From Curvularia clavata (taxonomy: Eukaryota), in assembly GCA_023920165.1 (NCBI GenBank), contig CP089278.1, positions 186,001 through 250,000 on the forward strand: a DNA stretch of 64,000 bases. Direction: 5' to 3'. Shown piece after piece: positions 342-60,445 of the stretch. The position numbers were made by a program, and so were the translations under genes. Each line of letters begins with the position of its first letter. Position 1 is the first letter of the stretch. The notes under the pieces are model-generated. The model worked only from the letters and a program-made list of their open reading frames with translations. It made no database searches and had not been told where the DNA came from.

Positions 342-2919
342 ATGGAAGGCTCACGCCCCAAGATCGTGTATGGCGAAGAGGCTAAAAGTTATGTCACAGA
401 AGTCCTTGACAACTGCGTCTGGCGCAGAGCGACTGTTGTCGATGGAAAGACATACTGGGCGACGGATGAAACCGGTGGAATCGGCGAGCAAATCCAGGAT
501 GGAAAGTTCAAGGTCCGGCACATGGGGGGTTATCTTCTTCTAGCTCCGATAGATGAAGACGACTCTGATGATCCGGAAGCACGAGCTAAAGCAATCCAAA
601 AGTACGTTGACGCTCTTCAGGCTACACATCGCTAATCCGTCTAGAGAAAATGACGCTCGCGTCACTGCCTTCGTCAAAAGCGTGGCAGAACGCCTTATCA
701 AATTCCATCGGGGTCGTAAAGAACCAGAAGATCAACAGGAAGGAGCTTTCAGAATGTTCACAGAAAAGACAGCGAGCGATATCATCGACAAGATCACACA
801 AGCTTTCGTCGAGATTCTGTCAGAATATGGTCGCGAAGTAACCGCTCAGGATGTCCAAAACATGCTCGATGAAGATGCCATTGCAACTGTCCTTTTCGTC
901 AAGCTCACAGACTTCCTCCCTGACCTTCTGGTGGACAGGGTCCTTGTCACAGATGTTCATGGCTATCTGGACGACGACTTCGACAATCCCGGCCCTGAAT
1001 TGAGGCCTGACAGTCAAATGATCTCGAGTGGCCTTCTCAGCTTCCAAAACAAGGACTTTGAAGGCCTAAGGCAGCGAGTATTGAGAACAAATGTTGAGTC
1101 ACTCCTGCGGCCTCTGAACAGAATGGATGTCAAAGAGAACGATGATGGCTATGAGTCTGATAGTTCGAGGGTATCACAAGAACACTGCCGGATGTCTCCG
1201 TATTATCCTCCTTGTGACGACGATTGCTGGCTGCGACACATACCACTGCAGGGCGAACGAGCCGCTGAAACCAATGCTGCTACGATTGTGACGAAATCGG
1301 TACCTCCAATCTATCAGAGTCTTGAACCAGATTATATCCGTATTCTTACTATCCAGCCAGGGTTGCGCGATACGACCCTCTCATGTGAGCTTACGGCTTG
1401 CTCCATATCAAGTCTGGCCGGAGATGCATCAGGGGTAACAAGTATCCCTTTCAAAGCACTGTCTTACACGTGGGGAGACCCAACACCATGCCACATTATC
1501 AAGTGCAATGGATATGATCTTCCAATTGCCAATAACTTGTATTATGCACTCCAGTATCTTCGAGAGACAGACCGCCCTGTAGCATTCTGGATAGACGCTA
1601 TTTGCATAAACCAGTACGATGTTGCGGAAAAGAGCGAGCAGATTCGTCATATGTACGAAGTATACCAATTTGCCACTCAGGTTGTAGTATGGCTCGGACC
1701 CCATTACGACAACTCTGAGCTAGCCATGCAGAGCATCAATCACTTGGAGAATGCTGACAATCGACACTCAATACTACGACGAGATCATGGAGCGGTTTGC
1801 ATCTCGAATCTCGAGCGGGTGGTGATTTTTCTGGAAAGCTTGTTTCAACGCCAGTGGTTCTCGCGTAGCTGGATAAGGCAAGAGATTGCAGCTGCCCGGA
1901 AAGTCATAGTTAAGTGTGGGAATGATGAGATTCCTTGGAGTTCCCTGAAAAAAATTGCCAATTGCATGTGGAGGTTGCAGGAGAAGATTGTGTCAAGCGG
2001 AAGCGAGGACACGCCACATGTAATTGACAAATTTCGATCCAGCCCTCTCCGATACCTGAGACGAAAGCTCTTCCCCGGTCAATCTCTTGTTTCCGACAAC
2101 GGCGACTTGCGCAGCTTGTGGTACTATCATGCTGGAGGCTTCCTTGATTACTTGATGGTTTCCAGGGTGTTCGAGGCGACGGATCCGAGGGACAAGGTTT
2201 ATGCGGTGCTAGGTATCGCGGATGTACCAATCGAGAGCAACGATTCCCTGGAAGCACATGGCGACCATACCCCAAAGATGCGCGTAGATTACGGCGCGGG
2301 GGTATCCGAAGTGTACCAATACACCGCCAAATACATCATCAACCGTGACCGGAATCTCGACATCTTGTGCATCTTGTCAACCCATCGCGATAAAAACTCG
2401 AGTGATCTTCCGACATGGACACCTGACTGGCGTGTTCCTGTAAGCTCAATCCCGATGTATGCTAACTGGGATTATGTCGGTTACAAGTTTGGGGCTGCAG
2501 GCTTCACGAATGCCCTTTGGCAGAACCAAGATGAAGTTGGCATACTTGTAGCGCAAGGGTTTTTGCTCAGCACAATCACGGAGCTCGTACCACTGGGGAT
2601 TACCTCAATCCCCCATCCGCCAGAGGAGCCAGCGGGTACTGCCGAGAGTTTTGACCCACAGGAGCACCTAAGACGGATGGCGTTGACAAGCAAGGGAAAT
2701 TCCATAGTTCCGTCCCAGGCAGAAGTAGGAGATGAAGTATGGATACTCTGGGGCTGCAAGCTGCCGATTGTCTTGAGGACTGTAGGTGATGCTGGGTGTA
2801 AGGAACAGTCGAAGTATACGGTTGTTGGTCCATGCTATATCCCAGTGTACATGTGGGGCAGGGGACTGAAAGAGTTCCAGGAGGCTAGGGGAGAGGCACG
2901 CAAGATTGTTTTAGTGTAA
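342..2919 (+). CDS. HET-domain (heterokaryon incompatibility, HET-6-like) protein with long N-terminal extension; exons 342-601, 645-2919
   Basis: HET motifs FKALSYTWGD, FWIDAICINQ, YQFATQVVVWLG, WFSRSWIRQE, ATDPRDKVYAVLG and C-terminal GDEVWILWG..IVLR..VVGPCY. A 43-nt intron (GTACGT..GCTAAT..CTAG, 602-644) joins ORF 342 in frame to ORF 553-2919. Confidence 0.88.
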
Positions 2920-3310: not shown

Positions 3311-3694
3311 CAATTCATTGGTTCTGAGGTAGTTCGGGCCAAGGCTCCACGCAGGCACCCGGCCTATTACATGGTATACCCCATGCAACCCCAGCTTTAG
3401 GTTCTGGATTAAGCAGTGCATCTGGTTACTCCTCCGCGACACTAAATGAATGTATTGATATTGTCAAGCTCGACTATAACTATCTAGTACATATTGAATA
3501 CCAGGCTAGGAAGGCAATTTACAGATCGGAGAACGAACATGAGGTTTGTGTGATGATGAAATGCAAGTATAAAGGAAAGGAACCGTCCTCGAGCAGACAA
3601 GATACCGCACACAATTCCCACTATTTACAACACTCTTTCCACCATAGCTAATTAAACTTATTCACATTTCTATCCGAACATCACTAATATAAAC

Positions 3695-27384: not shown

Positions 27385-29780
27385 CTACGAACCATTTGCG
27401 CTCGCAATCGCAGACATGCTGCTGTCGTCATTGCCTGTGCCTTCCTTGGGCCGGTCCCATGTTCTGATGTGGCCTGCGGTCATAAAGTCAGCACGAGGTC
27501 CACTTCTCTTATCTAACCTTTGGCCCCTCCGACCAAACTCAACAACTACCAGGCGCTACACAGCTCCGAGTGCACGGGTGTTCCTGCGCGCGCGCACGTC
27601 TGCCTGCCGCGCACTAAAACAACCCTTATCGCAGATCGCAGGGATGTAGTGCCCAATGTGCAGCCCATGAGTGGACACAAAGTGATGTACAACGAAAACT
27701 TTTTGACCATGCCAACTCACCGTTCTTGCATGATGTGAGGATGCAGTCCTCTTCAAACCCGAGCCAGCACAGTGGATGCTCGTGTACCGTTTTAGCCTAC
27801 GCAACCATGGCGATTAGAATTTGCTCATGTTGAGGTTTCAGCGCGACTCACCAACACCGGAGGTAGCATAGCTGTGCGGGCCCGCGGCTCCACTGGATGT
27901 ACCACTTCCTCATCGTCCGACATGCTGCCTGACGTGAGGTTAGAGTTTGACCGCAGCCGGTTCATGGAGCTGCCCGTTTGAGAGCGCTGCATCTTGAGAT
28001 TGGACGACGCGATACTTCCGCGCTGTCGTACCGAAGCCTACATCAGCGTCAGCATTCCCCTTGACAGCGTCGACATTTTCTTCGACTTACTGCCCGCGGC
28101 CGGTGCAACATGCCCACACTAAAGTCCCATAGCAATAAGCGACAGTCTTCTCCCACGCTGCCAATACGATAGTTGCGCTCGTCACAGCGCCATGGGTCAA
28201 ACTGCACAGCCGTCACCCACGAGTTGTGTCCCTGGCAGCGTGCAACGAGCATGCTATCCTCCAATGACCATATTGACACGAGGTCGTCTTGGCCTCCGGT
28301 AACTACGTATCGTCCGTCTGGCGACCAGCACACGCACATCATGCCGCCGTAGTAGCTCATGTAGTGGTGCAGCAGCTTCTCCCGGAGAAAATCCATGATC
28401 CTGAATGACCCGTCCTCGGACACTACCGCCAGGTGACGGCGATCGGGCGAAAATTCAAAAGCATTGACCTTGGACCTCGACACCTGCCAGTAGGATACAG
28501 GGTTGGTCTTTTGGTTCTTGGAATTGACAGACTTTTTGATTGTCAAGAGCGACTTGAGCTTCTTTTCGCCGTCGCTCATGCTGTCGTCCGAAGGCGACGA
28601 CGTCACCTCGTCGGGCACAAACACGGCGTCCTCCTTCTCCTTGTCGTACACAACCAGACTGCCGTCCATGTGTGCTGCCAAAAATAGATTCTCGCTGTTT
28701 GGCAGCCACCGTATGTCAGACACGGCCGTGGCATTGATGACGCCATTCTTGTTGATGCGCGCATATTTTTGCGACATGGGCTCGTACCATATGATGTCGC
28801 CTGTGGAGAAGCCCATGATGATGTCAAGGTGATTGGGGCCTTTTGTGATTTGGTTGATGTCGTGACACAGCGCATGAGCCTTGGTAAAGAGTATCTTTGT
28901 CAAGTGCTCCTCCTTTGTGGGCGACGTCAAATCTAGCCATTGGAATGCGCGGTTGACGTTTGCAAAGGCGTACAGGCCATTGGGATTGTGTTCTTGCAGC
29001 CGCTTGGTCAGCGCCTCGTGTGGGATCACTCTGGACACAAACGACGAGTTGCTCTTAACAATATTGCTCTTGGGCTTCCTTCGTTTGGACGGGTCCTTTG
29101 AGTCCTTGCCGTTTACCACGGCCAGCGCTGGGTTTCCCTCTCCGAATACGGGTGTCTTGAGGCCGTCCAAAGGCGATGCCGCGAATCCATTTGCGCCGTG
29201 AGAGTCGAGATCGCTTGCCTGGCTATTGGACTCGTGCGGCGATTCCTGGATGCTCTGGGGGACCTGGGACCGTGTGCTGTTGCGGGTGCCGAATCGATAG
29301 AGCTGCGATTGCGAGGGCTGGCGGGGCGCGAGGGCGACGAGCGAAAGCTTAGTCCCGGCGGTGGGTGGAGAGATGGTGGTCGCGAGCGGATTGTTGCTCT
29401 GGACGGGGGCTTCCGAGGGATGCGGCGGCGGGGTGGCTAGGTGGAGGTCGTCGCGGAGCACGTAGGTTCCTATCATGGCACCAGTGTTAGCAGCAAGCAA
29501 GCAATCAAGCAGGCAGCCAGGCAAGGGAGCCAAATACCTTCTCCGACTACCAGCTGATAGTCGGGACCCGAGAGATGGGTGATTGTGTTGTTGGTCTCGA
29601 TAAGCTGACCAGGTTGGGCACCTGGATAGCCTCCGACGGGATAGCGCGGTGGAGGGGGGAGGACGCTGTATAACATCAGTCAAGGGCGCGCGGCGCAGGT
29701 GGAGCATGATAGGGCTGCGATTGGTGGTTGGACGGGTGGCAGGCGGTCAGCACAAAGGGTAGATAGAGCACTTACAACAT
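27385..29780 (-). CDS. creC: WD40 catabolite repression protein CreC; exons 29780-29776, 29665-29538, 29469-28091, 28037-27852, 27796-27721, 27473-27385
   Basis: Spliced start [32 protein letters not shown] repeats ([44 protein letters not shown]), terminal GHIRTWDRP. Confidence 0.93.
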
Positions 29781-33488: not shown

Positions 33489-36400
33489 ATGCAGTAATGC
33501 CCAAGCAGAGGGGAACACGAAAGTGCAGGTATAATACGAAGTGATGTTGCTGCTGCTCCTGCTGCTGCTCCTGCATTCCCGGCAAAGGTCCGCGCCGCCC
33601 ATCCAAAGCCCAAGCTGACCACGTCTTGCACCCCACAGGCGACCAACCGAGCACAAGAGCTGGACCGCCTGTACCAGATGCGAAATCCCCCCCGCCGTGG
33701 CCACGCGCCCCAGATTTCCATCAGCGATGACAACCATCACGTCACCGAGGCCATAGGCGACCTCTATGGCGGAGACAGCGACACCGAATCAAACAGACGC
33801 AGCCTGCGACCCCTCAGCTTCGTGCCCAGTCCCAACGGCGATTCGATCCAGTCTTTCGGTGCCTTTGAGGCCTTCGATCCGTTCCCAAACTCCCCTCCGG
33901 CCAGGTCCCCGCTGCGGCCCCCAATGTCCTTTGACCACCCCGCCACCCCGACCAGCCCACAAGATGGTTCCGACGCGCGCCAGAACAAGTCCCCAACCAC
34001 GAGAAGTCCTCCCAATAATGGCCAGATGTCCCCCCCGCTGTCCCGCTCCAACTCGGGCACCGCCTCGCACCAGTTTCCTCTCAACGACCTGGACTACGAA
34101 TCGAGCCCAGCCGGTCTGGCACAGGAACTGAGCAATCTGCAGGCCATCCGCCGAATGTCCATGGGCGTCAACAGTGCCGACCCTGACCTGCCCTCGTTCC
34201 AATCTGCCAACACGCCCCCGTCGCCACCACCCACATCCGAAGACGACGAGTCGAAGCTGTTTTGGGTCCCCGCGCGACTGCATCCCGAACTAGCGCCCAT
34301 GGAGTTCAAGACATTTATCGAGGACAAGATCGATAAGACCAGACGCCGCTCCGGAGATGCCGACTCGCTCAACCCGGACAATGCTCTTGGGCGCCAGGGT
34401 TCAGGCGCGGGGTTGCGGAGAAAGAAGTCGATGCTCTCGAGGCAGATTGACACAGGTATTGGCTACAAGGACGGGGCTGAAAGACTAGAGAGGAAACGCT
34501 CTGGCGCGAAAGCACCCGGGGGTCTGGCTAATCTCCAGGAACTCGAGAACATCCAAGAAGATCCCGTGTCCATGATAAGACGCTTGAGCATTGACCACAA
34601 GAACGCTGGAGAGAGCGAGATGGGTGAGGATGGAGATTTGCCTATTGTTCCGGGAAGCAAGCTAGGTGGCATGGGAGCACTGAAGCGATCCACGCGTACC
34701 ACCTACCGCCGAGGCAGTTTACGTAAGGGTGGTCCGGCTCTTTCACGGCGACTGGTGAGCCATCGGCAGGGAGAGGGAGACGCTGAGGAGTCCCCCTCCA
34801 CCTCGCCCGTGCACTCGAACGAAAACATATCCGAAGTCCCACCGCTGCCCATCTCACGCGTTCAGTCCGAGCCCGTTCATTCAGCTTTTGAAGGTTCGCA
34901 CAGCAATTTCTCGAGACCGCAGCAGAACCGCTCGCCTCCTAGCACTGCAGAGAGGCCGGGTTCGGCAGAGGGAGCTCCAGGGTCATCTTCTCCCGAGCCG
35001 CAATCGTCGCCTCAGCCGAGACGCTTTCATTCCAGAATTGCTTCAAACGGTCGCACCACGGCACCCCTGCCAGGATATGTCCCTTCAACACAACAGCAGG
35101 TCCCTCAGATCGTCGAGACTCCCCCGCCACAAGATCAGAGACCATTTCAACCACCAGAGCGCTCCTCTTCACGTCAAATTCCACCTCCTTCTCAACAACA
35201 ACCGGCTGGCCCTCGTAGTTACCCTCAACCCCAACAGCCTCCTTCCAACCAACAACGCCAGTCTCCTTCCGCCCGGCCGAACCGTCATGCCCAAGCTGCT
35301 CAAGCTTCTCCAATTAAGCCTTCCCAGTCGCTCGATGACCTGGTCGGCCATAGCTCACCCATGCCTGGCACGAGCAACCGTGTAGATTCCTTATCAATCA
35401 TTCCTAATGCTCCCGAGGAAAAGAAGTTGGAAAAGAAGTCCAAAGACAGGAAGGACAGCTCTGAAGGCGGTGTCAGGAAAACGAGTTGGGGCTGGTTTGG
35501 TGGTGACAAGGAGAAGGAAAAGGACAAGGGCGAGAAAGAAAAGGACAAGGACACCCCCAAAAAGACTAAGAACAAGCTCAGCAAGCCGCAAGAAAAGGGC
35601 CACGACGATACCAGACTCGACCTGTTGCAGACATCTATTCAGGGTAGCGGTCGTGGACGTGAGAGTGTGGTGCTGGACCGTGAAAGTGTCAAGTTGGAAG
35701 AGGAACGCAAAAAGGAGAGTGCCAAGAAGAATTCTGGTGACGGCAAGAAGGAGAAGGAGCCTGGTTTGCTGTCGTCTATTTTCGGAGGTGGAAAGAAGAA
35801 GGGCGAGAAGGAGTCGTCTCATAAGAAGAATGCTTCTCGCGGATTATCACCAGATCCCCCGGTGCGCATCTTGAAGCCCGACATTGACTACAACTGGACT
35901 CGGTTCTCGATTCTCGAGGAGCGTGCCATATACCGCATGGCCCATATCAAGCTTGCGAACCCTCGCCGTGAGCTCTATTCGCAAGTCTTGCTCAGCAACT
36001 TCATGTACTCGTACCTTGCAAAAGTGCAACAGATGCATCCGCAAATCTCCATTGGCAATTCCAAGCAGGCCAAGCAGGCCCAACAGGCTCAGCAGGCTCA
36101 GCAGGCCGCGCAACAGAAGAAGGAGCAAGAACAACAGATGCTGCTGCAGCAACAGCAACAGCAGCAAGCGGCTCAGCAGCAAGTCGTTCAGCAGCAGCAG
36201 CAGCAGCAGCAAGCGCCCCAACAAGCGCAGCCAGAGGAGTTTGCTCAATATCAGCGGTATCAACAGGTAATAGCCACCGTTGTAGTTTCGAAACTCAGCT
36301 AATAGGTATCTCAGCAGCAACAGCAACAACAGTACGAACAGCAACAGAAGACCCAGGAATGGCCTAGCGTATTCCAACAACAAGAAAATGGCTTCTCGCC

Positions 36401-54300: not shown

Positions 54301-56375
54301 ATGGACCTTTCAGACCGATGGCAGACTATTGCCCCTGCCTCAGACGAGCCCGGACAGCGACGCGCCGCGCCAGACCGGCGCAAACGGCGACAGGCCGTTG
54401 CTGTGGCTTGTGTGCACTGCCGCAACGGGAAGGCCAAGGTACGTAGGACCGTGTTACACCCAGCCAGTGTCATGAGTCTTCGGTGATCCGGGGTCCTCTG
54501 CATTGTCTTTCAGCGTCCGCTGACGCCTGGCAGCAATGCAGACAACCCGACGCCCGCCCTCCTGCCAACCACGTGCCACTGTAGTCCTCTGCTACTCTTC
54601 TATGGGTAATCACTGGCCGTGACACTACCTGTAGGTAGCCGATTTACTGCTTTGGCATCTTTCACCCAAGCTCCAAGGCCGCTAATTCACCCTTTTACAG
54701 TGCGATGGCACCAGACCACGATGCAACCGCTGCAAGGACAACGATCTCATCTGCCAGTACGATGTCGCAGAGGGCGTCTCCAGAGCTGAGCGAATGAAGA
54801 TTATGAAGCGGGACAGCATCACCGGCGAGCTCGAAGACCTAAAGCGTATCGTAACCTCGCTACGCTCAGGTACCGATGACCAGGCCGCAGCCATTCTCGC
54901 GAGATTACGACTTGGTGAGACTCCTGAAGACGTTGCAAAATCTCTCTCCCTGGCATCCTCTCCAGCAGCAGGCGCCCAGCCGCCCAGGTACGCATCACTA
55001 CATCACAGCTTCCTCCCTGGCTTCAAAAAAAAACATGTTGGTAACTGGGGTTCAGCTTACTGGGCCAGGAGTCCACCGATACCTCTGGAAGTGCAATGAG
55101 CCACGAATCAAATCTCGATCCCAGCAAACAACCTTCCAAATTCCGTCAAGGCTCTGTACCTTCTTTGACTTCGCCCACAAGCCAGACTCATGCCTGGTCA
55201 CCTTCGGCAAATCTTTCTCAGCCCGCATTTCCGCATCCAGTGGTAGGAAAGCAGCCAGGCGGTGGTGATGAACAGCCTTTCTTATGTCCCTTGTTTGACC
55301 GAGACGACTATCTTCTCCCAAAAGCAGACACCGATGGTGAAAGCGACGACGAAGACCTTGAAGAGAGAACTATTGACCCTCGGCTTACCCAGCAGGTTTC
55401 AAGCTTCGACCTCCGCCCCATTCCATCCTCTTCAAAAAGGTCCTCTATTAGCCAGAGAAGGTCACCACACCGACAGAATAGGGTTCGGTCTATTTATCCC
55501 ACTCATCTTGCTGGCCGACAGCCGATGGTGAACACCATCCGTATCCACCCAAATCTCGACATCCGCAGTTTCTTCGACAATACATTCTTTTCTACCGATG
55601 CCGAGTCAAGCAAACATCCTTCTGAAACACAACAGACGCGTAGCAGCAACCTTTTTGTTCCAACGTGGGCTATGCTTCCGATCAACACGGTGCCTGATCC
55701 TGGCTCACTCAAGCGCACTGTGCCAAATATATTGCAAGAAGCTGCGAATTTGATAAAAAATGGACGGCCAGTCGAGGATATTATTGAAAAGCACCCCAAT
55801 ATTGCCGCTCTGTTTGACGAAGGAGCTTTCAACAACTCGGGCATACTTTCCAAGTGGGCAGTTGGCATGGTACACGGCGTACATCTCAAAGGTAGCCTTT
55901 CCTACTCGTCTGCCACCGTAGAGCCAATTCACTAACTTGCCTAGGCAACACGTTTACATGCTTCGGCTCCATGTATGTCTTTTGGATACTAATACGCTGG
56001 ATGATTTCACCCTCGCCCGAAACGTATAACGCTATGCCCGAGTGGCTGCGCCCGACCCCGAATCAGCTTTTCATGCCACATATCAACATTGTCGATTTTA
56101 TAGTGTGGCCCGCCTTCCGTGAGCTTGCTGCTCAAATCCCGGCAATGCAGGAAAGAATGGAATGGCTCATGGATATGAGCCTCGGGATCCAGTGCGATTG
56201 GTCGTTCCCCACCAGCGAGGCTCTGTGTAAAAATGACGAGACAGGCCAAACGGATCTCTCCGAGCCAGCAAAGCAGGTCATCCGAGACTTGACGAGTTGG
56301 AGCGTTGGACCGAGTTTTAGGGGATACGTGAGCAATGCGGATTCCTATGTTAGAATCAGGACAGAAGGATACTGA
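54301..56375 (+). CDS. Zn2Cys6 transcription factor with DUF3425-like C-terminus; exons 54301-54438, 54701-54987, 55056-55891, 55945-56375
   Basis: ACVHCRNGKAK|CDGTRPRCNRCKDNDLICQY binuclear cluster; C-terminal PEWLRPTPNQLFMPH..DFIVWPAFRE. Confidence 0.9.
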
Positions 56376-57391: not shown

Positions 57392-59231
57392 TGTTGTTGG
57401 TGACTGATGAAAGCAACTCAGATTGTACTGGTTATGTTTCTGTAATCCACGGCCTTTGTGCTGCTATATTCCATGTAAAGTTTCTGGTTCCTGGGGGGTG
57501 AGGCAAAGAAAATTTTCTTTCCACACTATGGTGTGGGGATATCATACGCTAGTTGTACATCCGTGTGTAACGAGGTGATAACATGAAGAAAATGAAGCAA
57601 AGAGAAGAAAAGGTGATCAAGAAAAAATATCTTTTTCCGTACAAGAACTTAAAATGTTGCCAGCAAAGCCGGTGTCCTTCAAGTCAGATTCTTTGCAAGT
57701 CGACATGTTATCGGCTGGTGGGTGATCCCAAGTAGTGTTTACCTTTGCTCGTCCACGAAGAAACAAGAGAATACAGCCGTCCGGCAGTCCTAGCTGGAAT
57801 CGTTCTCTCATGTAACTCGACACGTTCAGGAGGAGCGCATGGCAATTCAAAACCCTGGGAAGAAACCGGGTCGACCTGGGACGCATCTTGAACATTATGG
57901 TAGGGGTAGTCTGCAAATCCACGGATTGCTTATCATAAGCCTTTTCAGGCTCCTTGACCTTTCAGTCGTGACCTGTACGGACACAGAGAAGGAATACGGA
58001 CGGAGACTGCAACGGGTCCCTTCTGAACGGTAATGGCAAATCGCACACGATCCTAGCAGGCGTCCGTCTAGGATGACACAGCGCGAGTCAGGCCAGGTTG
58101 GCTAGTTCAATTAAGAGGATTAAAGGGCGAGACAGCAGTGTAGAGACTAGGCGTAAGCCTACATAGAGAGAATTCTGCCTCAGCGCACAGACCTGGGGCC
58201 TGGCAAGCGATGGCGAAGGCAGATGATCACCGCCACAACCCACCAGAGCCACGATTGGAAGGCTGTCGAGTGAAATCATGCGGCACCCTTCGTCCAAATG
58301 TTGGCGAATATCTTTGAACATATCGACGTCTTTCTTTATGCCTGACTCCAGACAGTGCTCTTGAAATAGACTGCATTTCGAAGCCACAGTAACGAGCTGT
58401 CCGAGATTTCCAGGTCCTAGGTGTTGACGGCATCTGCGTTAACTCGGGAAACTTTGGCTTCCCTTCCAATGCAAGACACTCCATAACTCGCTTCGAAGCA
58501 GTGCCTCCAACTAACTTGACTTTTTACGAGCCCAATCCCTTGGCAACCCCCTCGTTGGATATCTATGATATAGCCAGCCTTACCAAAGGTGGCAAATGCT
58601 CCCTCCTTGAACACGTTCATAAAAAAGGCAGAGACATAGTAGGACACCTGCCCATGTCGAACCCCTTATTCGAGATCAGGCTGCAATTGATGGATTTGAG
58701 TTTGGTGGGCATGGTGCAACTCGGTCCAAGTTGGCCAGAATTGGTCAAAATCGCACAAAATCAGCGAGAACTGGGCGGAGGGACGGCAAATCGGTCGTGG
58801 CTATGGGGATAGTACTTCCCAGTCTCGGGGGTTGATACTGCTCATCGCTTCCCGGTGTATTGTTTATTCGATCCGCAGACGGACGAACAGATTGACAACA
58901 ACTGTTCCACATGGCGACAAGCCTACGAGACGTCTGTAAGCTATTAGGTGCGTCTATCATGATGCCGACTCGAGAATCTTTCTGCGAATTGTGGCCATTC
59001 CCAAAGAAAAGCATAGAAGCGAATAAGCTACAGTTTTTGGCCTTGGGATCATTCCACTTCTTGTCCACTTCTGTGTGTTCAGTAGCATTATCTTGCGAGT
59101 ACACGATAAAGATGCTATGAATTAGGAGCTCCATACAATCTAGGCAATCTCCTGCACAATGGGTGTCATGAACCAGAAAATGACTTTCTCGTCCTAGAGC
59201 TCGGCCCGATCCATGTCAAGTAGTCAAGTCA

Positions 59232-60077
59232 CTAGACAGCCCAAGGCAGTACCCCGGTGCGATGATATATAGTCCTCGCGCGATTATCCAGCAAGACTTC
59301 CTTGGCGGCGTTCAGGCGCTGCATGGCCTCAGTTGCGACCAAACGTTCTTCAGGAGTACTGGCATGGTCGGGATGTATGGTACGGGCTTTGTGACGGTAA
59401 GCTGAATGGATGACCTCAGCAGCAGCATGCCAGTCAACCAAATCGAGCATGTTATATAGAGTCATGTCGACTGGAGGTGTGACCAAGGGGTTATTGCGCC
59501 GTGGGCGGGCTGGGCGGCGGTCATGTGATGGTGGTGGTGGTGATTGAGAAGGAGGAGGAGTTCCTGCCGACGGAGTGGTCGGGTTGAGAGGAGACGAGTG
59601 TGGAGCATCGAATTGAGGACGCTGATGCCACGGGATATAATTTTCCCAGTTCTCCCAGTTGGGATCCTCACTCGAGAAAGAGAAAGTAGTATCAAGCGGA
59701 CGAGGAGAGGAAACAGGTGTCGAGCTTCCGCGGTCCGCCAACGGCGTCCGTGGCGTACTCATCTTGGGCCGCTTTGGTGTTGCGGTGAACGGCGTGGGAA
59801 GTTGCTCTTCAGGATCCATGAAGATGGCAAACTCGGCCTTGCGCTTTTTTCTCCCCTTGCTCTGGGAAGACGGAGTGCCTTTGGCGGCAAACAGGGTGCG
59901 CTTGACAACCGGGGTCGATGGAGCCGGAATCTCGACCATCAAAGAGGGGCGAGGACTTGAGCGCCGTGGTGCAGCGAGAACGCAATTGAAACTGACTTCC
60001 AGGTCCGCGTTGTCGGACTCTGGAAGCGGGGTATTGATGGCAAGCGCTAGGAAGTATTCGTCATCAAAGTTGATCAT
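59232..60077 (-). CDS. Protein with disordered S/T/P-rich N-terminus and C-terminal J (DnaJ) domain
   Basis: LYNMLDL..VIHSAYRHKARTIHPD..AMQRLNAAKEVLLD..RTIY J-domain pattern with intact HPD; probable 5'UTR intron 60194-60090. Confidence 0.82.
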   Translation of the reverse strand: MINFDDEYFLALAINTPLPESDNADLEVSFNCVLAAPRRSSPRPSLMVEIPAPSTPVVKRTLFAAKGTPSSQSKGRKKRKAEFAIFMDPEEQLPTPFTATPKRPKMSTPRTPLADRGSSTPVSSPRPLDTTFSFSSEDPNWENWENYIPWHQRPQFDAPHSSPLNPTTPSAGTPPPSQSPPPPSHDRRPARPRRNNPLVTPPVDMTLYNMLDLVDWHAAAEVIHSAYRHKARTIHPDHASTPEERLVATEAMQRLNAAKEVLLDNRARTIYHRTGVLPWAV

Positions 60078-60445
60078 TGTGTTGATATACTGTTGTAGGG
60101 TTAGAAATCATAGCTCTGTCAATTGGCATCGAAAATCAAAGAACCAAATAAAGAGACAACTCAAGACAAGTTGAAGAGAAAACATGGTACTTACCTTTGA
60201 TGATACTGAAGTGAGTCTTCAATTGCGAACTGAAGAAGGATATGTCGGGTTGAATTGAGGAGTTGAGTGTTGGAGAAGTAGGTGAGTTGAGGTTGGTTGA
60301 TATGAGAGGTTATGATTGAAGGAGAGTTGATATTACTTTGAGTGACTGAAGTGATTGAGATCTTGGTTGTCAGGCACAGGGTCCGCGCTCCACCCGTGGT
60401 GAAGCTAATTGCAAACAAAGACAGCGTGGGGTGGCTGGCGCCAGA

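Follow-up and report, generated by a model that had tools for sequence, protein, structure and literature searches.

The minus strand of the window (the whole stretch of Curvularia clavata DNA that was analysed, 64,000 nucleotides) was found to encode a J-protein of 281 amino acids, the disordered front part of which carries short islands that are conserved, at constrained spacing, in a family of fungal relatives. Three of these islands resemble the ABBA, D-box and KEN motifs, and with a probability of roughly 45% they form, judged from their sequence, a multivalent docking module for a coactivator of the APC/C (Cdc20 and/or Cdh1). The features concerned, with their coordinates in the window and the evidence for each, are as follows.

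59232..60077 (-): coding sequence of the 281-aa J-domain protein (P0001), a single exon, stop included (open reading frame translation)
60090..60194 (-): 5'UTR intron, 105 nt, GTAAGT...ACAG (spliced transcript contigs)
60033..60068 (-): N-terminal helix, aa 4-15, followed by TPLP (AF2 helix, block pLDDT 71-83; consensus ..A..TPLP)
59889..59903 (-): KRTLF, aa 59-63, not conserved (motif counts, alignment)
59814..59858 (-): basic KGRKKRK (aa 74-80) and ABBA-like FAIFMD (aa 83-88) (anchored logo, motif counts)
59769..59780 (-): TPKR, the sole full CDK-consensus site, lying within the second basic patch, which reads PKKxK in relatives (motif scan)
59724..59750 (-): D-box-like RTPLADRGS, aa 110-118, with a proline-directed Thr at P2 (alignment, logo)
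59685..59723 (-): S/T-P cluster, aa 119-131, consensus NSTPxPSPRxPDTPF (alignment consensus, conservation profile)
59631..59666 (-): KEN-like island DPNWENWENYIP, aa 138-149, family consensus DPxWE[DN]xENYxP (alignment)
59256..59462 (-): C-terminal J domain, aa 206-274 (Pfam PF00226, PDB matches, AF2)

The J-protein gene is real, transcribed and spliced. Its open reading frame translates to exactly 281 amino acids, and contigs from two public runs of two studies (X1 and X3), which cover the whole gene, join position 60089 to 60195 with GT..AG at the intron ends on the minus strand. A 15-letter loose end at 60091 in a third run (X14) matches the end of exon 1 when read by eye. In the final 400 nt of the leader after splicing no ATG precedes the one at 60077, which has an in-frame stop 13 codons upstream. 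Because the splice signal is on the minus strand, the overlapping plus strand frames at 59625-59960 and 59818-60174 were read as non-coding shadows of the gene.

The X1 and X3 contigs are 95-99% identical to the window and, given this identity, their source is taken to be a related strain. Six differences were counted across the 846 nt of the coding sequence (N23N, V28A, P42L, E145E, R245C and Y271Y), compared with 18 listed differences in the downstream 329 nt, and none of the six changes a residue in the ABBA-like, D-box-like or KEN-like islands. At 3370 and 4213 nt the two spliced contigs far exceed the 846-nt coding sequence, extending approximately 1.2 kb past 60500 and at least approximately 0.7 kb below 58903; the excess could come from long UTRs, from read-through or from neighbouring transcripts that overlap. 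A metatranscriptome run (X12) contributed a single contig of 151 nt, which covers 59051-59201 only.

The window is ordinary filamentous-ascomycete DNA, with HET, Yju2, Miro GTPase, Zds_C, multicopper oxidase, RTA1 and other families. The HET-domain (heterokaryon incompatibility) frame lies at 553-2919 (+). A long frame at 33498-36302 (+) matches Zds_C (the C-terminal region associated with activation of the mitotic Cdc14 phosphatase) at E 1e-28, placing a cell-cycle regulator 23 kb from the J-protein gene, and no link between the two is assumed. The downstream neighbour, at 54686-56375 (+), consists of three consecutive frames which resemble one intron-split gene; by eye the first is Cys-rich and similar to a Zn-cluster regulator, and the last matches DUF3425 at E 4e-17. 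Of the window's reading frames the 26 largest include neither Cdc20 nor Cdh1, and the one WD40 protein among them, at 28049-29746 (-), was rejected as a candidate for either at 55 bits versus a cut-off of 200 with the CDC20/Fizzy model.

The original prediction, which was made from the sequence of this stretch, described a protein of 281 residues with a C-terminal HPD J domain, 16 S/T-P sites and a series of motifs at given positions, and all of these were present as described. Pfam DnaJ (PF00226) was matched at aa 207-271 (E 1.9e-9, 37.9 bits versus a cut-off of 27.8) and the same model was matched by 37 of the 39 family members aligned. The nearest PDB chains are all J domains, with E values down to 1.6e-4. 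With the family alignment as input, AF2 predicted helices at 206-210, 220-234, 242-263 and 265-274 (block pLDDT 96-98), the HPD at aa 235-237 (nt 59367-59375) falling between the second and third of these; outside the J domain it predicted the helix at aa 4-15 and otherwise coil, at a pLDDT of approximately 45-70. A J domain with an HPD implies activation of the Hsp70 ATPase, and such activation of an Hsp70 is expected of the predicted C-terminal domain, in which 36/39 members retain the HPD. Neither a G/F region nor a zinc finger nor a DnaJ C-terminal domain was detected, and besides DnaJ no Pfam family reached E 0.1 in the window protein; since the G/F-rich, zinc-finger and DnaJ C-terminal features are absent it is classed, by its predicted domain content, as a class C (type III) J-protein.

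A word-indexed protein search with the window protein returned one relative, and the breadth of the family was judged instead from an exhaustive phmmer search of 1.84 billion representatives, which gave 110 matches, 42 of them with E up to 1e-10. The alignment used here (A1) comprises the 39 members whose match extends past the J domain; short fragments limited to that domain and J-domain proteins with a different architecture were left out, and P0035 and P0051 are further family members outside the 39 counted. The source names of the approximately 40 relatives are all 'hypothetical' or 'DnaJ-domain-containing', and none is characterised. Species-level names are attached to 14 members, of which 13 are Pleosporales by name (Clathrospora, Pleomassaria, Periconia, two Pyrenophora, Byssothecium, Lentithecium, Karstenula, Melanomma, Ophiobolus, Coniothyrium, Massarina and 'Pleosporales sp.') and one is a Lizonia (Dothideomycetes incertae sedis); lineage was checked for three of the named members, the other named ones being placed by name, and the remaining members derive from metagenome or run assemblies. 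Judged by these matches, the family is lineage-restricted to the Dothideomycetes, essentially to the Pleosporales. No homologue of the targeting region was detected outside the family with phmmer, Pfam or the ESM Atlas, where aa 1-200 gave no usable feature match and all structure rows had a TM below 0.3. The phmmer matches P0063, P0081 and P0091 form a second group with a C-terminal J domain and similar ends (..YDRTG..), which has G/Y/S/R-rich repeats where the J-protein family has its motif cassette and may be a sister architecture.

Mean column identity in the 39-member alignment is 22% and the N-terminal half lies mostly at 0-30%, against which five islands stand out at 60-90%: the N-terminal helix with TPLP, the basic stretch with FAIFMD, RxPL, NSTPxPSPRxPDTPF and DPxWE[D/N]xENYxP. 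The motifs of the window protein listed in the original prediction (PSLMVE at aa 44-49, KRTLF at 59-63, KGRKKRK at 74-80, FAIFMD at 83-88, TPKR at 100-103, RTPLADR at 110-116 and WENWENYIP at 141-149) coincide with these islands in part. The expectation that such motifs would be conserved islands in a divergent region held for the ABBA-like, RxxL and xEN motifs and failed for KRTLF and PSLMVE, the latter being PxIxIT-like and found at the aligned place in only 2/39 members. TPKR, which is the one full [ST]Px[KR] site among the 16 [ST]P sites, was conserved in part only, with [ST]Px[KR] in that region in 10/39. The extreme N-terminus (aa 1-19, 60021-60077, minus strand) is conserved across most full-length members; its helix and TPLP fit none of the motif classes considered, and this end of the protein could provide a second site for docking or regulate the J domain intramolecularly.

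Expectation by chance was estimated from 100,000 composition-preserving shuffles of aa 1-200. A lone RxxL or TPxR in one sequence means nothing, because 64% of the shuffles contain RxxL and 58% contain [ST]Px[KR]. The other patterns were found in fewer shuffles: [DNE]xEN in 6.8%, RxLF in 4.7%, R[ST]PL in 3.4% and strict ABBA (Fx[ILV][FY]x[DE]) in 0.66%, or 0.087% when K/R at -3 was added. ABBA, RxxL and [DNE]xEN occurred together in 0.027%, a figure for a pattern picked after the fact. The single-sequence ABBA match and the triad are thereby uncommon, and the independent evidence is conservation across relatives.

That conservation counts against one reading of the protein. The original prediction had Hsp70 recruited to either APC/C coactivators or cyclin-CDK, the second through KRTLF as a cyclin-docking Cy motif, and the presence of KRTLF at aa 59-63 together with the 16 S/T-P sites would suit a J-protein docked on cyclin-CDK. 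RxLF was found at that place in only 2/39 members, however, and a relaxed Cy pattern in 6/39; the stretch that holds KRTLF is peculiar to the window protein, and RxLF arises in almost one shuffle in twenty (4.7%). The cyclin-CDK branch loses its basis because KRTLF is not conserved, and docking of this kind is highly improbable. The APC/C-coactivator branch gains support from the conservation of the other islands, from which we infer binding to Cdc20/Cdh1.

It is quite possible, on the other hand, that the islands, as short linear motifs, serve one or several partners that have nothing to do with the APC/C (a kinase, a phosphatase, an import receptor and a client handed to Hsp70 are candidates) and that their likeness to ABBA, D-box and KEN is coincidental. 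The three islands were compared with published degron rules.

The island around FAIFMD is taken first. The ABBA rule is Fx[ILV][FY]x[DE] (PMC5717348), and conserved basic residues lie upstream of the Cdc20-specific ABBA motif of Clb5 (PMC4195823). The strict rule is satisfied in 23/39 members, including the window protein, where the motif is in predicted coil, and a relaxed form in 36/39, with a basic stretch upstream in 36/39. In the anchored logo (n=37) P1 is F in 26 and I in 7, P3 is I in 29 and V in 7, P4 is F in 29 and Y in 5, and P6 is D in 33 and E in 4; upstream, P-4 is R in 25 and P-3 is K in 15 and R in 5. Against coincidence stand the rarity of the strict motif in shuffles and the fit of its basic flank; 16/39 members nevertheless fail the strict rule, which is itself short and hydrophobic. 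A handful of alternative motif classes was compared by eye against known consensus patterns, and PP1 RVxF, PP2A-B56 LxxIxE, calcineurin PxIxIT and SUMO-interaction motifs all fitted FAIFMD more poorly than ABBA did. Several relatives read PxIxIF at this island.

The second island fits such rules in part. R110 is nearly invariant and L113 invariant in the alignment, the region is predicted coil, and RxxL is present in 38/39 members, RxPL in 33/39 and R[ST]PL in 16/39. PMC5717348 gives Pro as frequent at P3 of the D box, Cdk phosphorylation at P2 as slowing degradation, as in Dbf4, and x[D/E][hydrophobic]xN[N/S] as the consensus beyond RxxL; non-canonical D boxes can carry basic residues at P2, P5 and P7. 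The R-[T/S]-P-L form, with Pro at P3 and S/T at P2, fits these rules and argues against an unrelated partner. Beyond it the island departs from the consensus: P6 is D/E in 15/38 only, P7 is R/K in 25/38 and hydrophobic in 11/38, and P9 is Asp in 19/38, with Asn not among its top residues. The conserved Asn at P12 (29/38) belongs to the NSTP island. The absence of Asn at P9, the basic P7 and the frequency of RxxL by chance favour an unrelated partner, and the RTPL island would be a non-canonical D box at best.

In the third island D138, E145 and N146 are nearly invariant. E-N was found in 36/39 members and [D/N]xEN in 34/39, as against [KR]EN in 10/39 and true KEN in 8/39. Among the 36 members with EN, the K position is K in 8, R in 2 and I/L/V in 17; D/N stands directly before it in 32/36 and E before that in 24/36, and Pro is the third residue after N in 19/36. 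KEN is usually preceded by acidic residues, with Asp/Asn at P-1, according to PMC5717348, and the D/N before xEN agrees with this. The K of KEN is missing in 31/39 members, however, the window protein having W-E-N, and the adjoining DPxW, which is conserved in 30-33 of the 36 and lies outside any degron rule, hints on sequence grounds at a different partner. DPxW was also considered as an AP-2 DP[FW] motif, which fitted the conserved positions more poorly than KEN.

The arrangement of the islands again favours the coactivator. The distance from ABBA to RxxL is 16-24 residues in 32/33 members and 46 in one, and that from RxxL to xEN is 27-34 residues in 33/33, with a median of 2 S/T-P sites separating the D-box-like island from xEN; inter-motif spacing is likewise reported as constrained in the BubR1 cassette (PMC5179498). 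Taken together, the strict ABBA motif, its basic flank, the R-[T/S]-P-L form, the D/N before xEN and the constrained spacing fit published rules, and against an unrelated partner it weighs that three islands within approximately 65 residues fit three degron classes of one receptor. In favour of such a partner it weighs that no homology to a known APC/C regulator was found above threshold in a Pfam search of the 39 members. On the side of the coactivator, Cyclin_N2 (PF16500, the APC/C-binding region of cyclin A) was the sole recurrent non-J family, in 3/39 members at E up to 5 (best 0.0075) and all sub-threshold, the window protein scoring 13.5 bits versus a cut-off of 24.

In the cassette a basic patch immediately precedes an ABBA-type motif; the D-box-like motif, R-[T/S]-P-L, follows 16-24 residues on, then comes a cluster of proline-directed phospho-acceptors and, at 27-34 residues from the RxxL, the KEN-like motif E-[D/N]-x-E-N-Y-x-P. 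If the coactivator reading is right, the cassette would dock on the WD40 propeller of Cdc20 and/or Cdh1, and this docking could be gated by CDK, through phosphorylation of P2 in the D-box-like motif and of sites in the S/T-P cluster beside it. The J-protein would then most probably be turned over as an APC/C substrate, by which its Hsp70-recruiting activity, probably nuclear, would be confined to part of the cell cycle. The proposal that the protein is an APC/C substrate, and with that a cell-cycle-timed co-chaperone, is tentative and in our view somewhat doubtful as it stands, yet it is the simplest form of the coactivator reading and more likely than an Hsp70-recruiting regulator.

Such a regulator would sit on the coactivator either as a pseudosubstrate block or as a platform from which the J domain loads Hsp70 onto Cdc20/Cdh1 or their complexes and remodels them. 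The non-J part of J-proteins normally specifies the client or site for Hsp70, which accords with this role, and 36/39 members retain the HPD, so that Hsp70 activation would be under selection together with the cassette. The combination of ABBA, D-box and KEN is moreover known in the inhibitors Acm1, a pseudosubstrate of Cdh1 in budding yeast, and BubR1/Mad3, and also in cyclins (PMC5717348 and PMC5179498). A pseudosubstrate-style cassette combined with Hsp70 firing could strip or remodel coactivator-APC/C, checkpoint complexes or coactivator-inhibitor pairs, an outcome we consider unlikely; on this reading such remodelling would be an invention of a single order of filamentous fungi, gated by CDK phosphorylation inside the D-box-like motif. 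The idea is reached by reasoning from the cassette, the motifs have many lysines next to them (in the basic clusters of aa 74-80 and 102-105) with nothing to suggest that ubiquitination is prevented, and the full-text literature, subscription journals lying outside the search, held no precedent for a J-protein acting on Cdc20/Cdh1. Nor did that literature contain a J-protein with an ABBA/D-box/KEN cassette, in agreement with the original prediction, which knew of no described protein with this architecture.

Class-C J-proteins are Hsp70 co-chaperones which have only a J domain and a specialised targeting region. The window protein resembles them in its J domain with HPD and its targeting region, here with the J domain C-terminal and the front part disordered, and differs in that its targeting region has no detectable homologue outside its own family. 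In auxilin/Swa2 a C-terminal J domain likewise stands behind a motif-rich region, as in the window protein. SV40 large T antigen uses a J domain and an LxCxE motif to bring Hsc70 to Rb-family complexes, and for the Hsp70-remodelling reading the logic would be the same, a J domain and a short motif docking on a cell-cycle regulator for remodelling by Hsp70; large T is viral, however, with an N-terminal J domain, a different target and no sequence relation, and the comparison is an analogy of mechanism only.

The S-phase cyclins (cyclin A and Clb5) share with the window protein a disordered region with an ABBA motif, basic residues upstream of it, and a D box (PMC4195823), whereas the window protein has no cyclin box and carries a J domain in its place. 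The constrained spacing of the J-protein family has its counterpart in BubR1 (PMC5179498). Acm1 and BubR1/Mad3's ABBA-KEN-ABBA cassette resemble the family further in having several degron-type motif classes on one disordered chain with CDK-type sites around them. They show no sequence homology to the family, and the order and number of motifs differ; the family mostly lacks the K of KEN and has a J domain attached.

The family is young and fast-evolving, in a fungal order rich in plant-associated species, and it offers a compact natural example of how a disordered chain acquires linear motifs and keeps their spacing fixed. The place where Hsp70 acts is decided by J-proteins, and what mitosis destroys by APC/C coactivators. 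If the proposed docking proves true, the protein would be new as a cell-cycle-timed co-chaperone or as a chaperone-based regulator of the APC/C.
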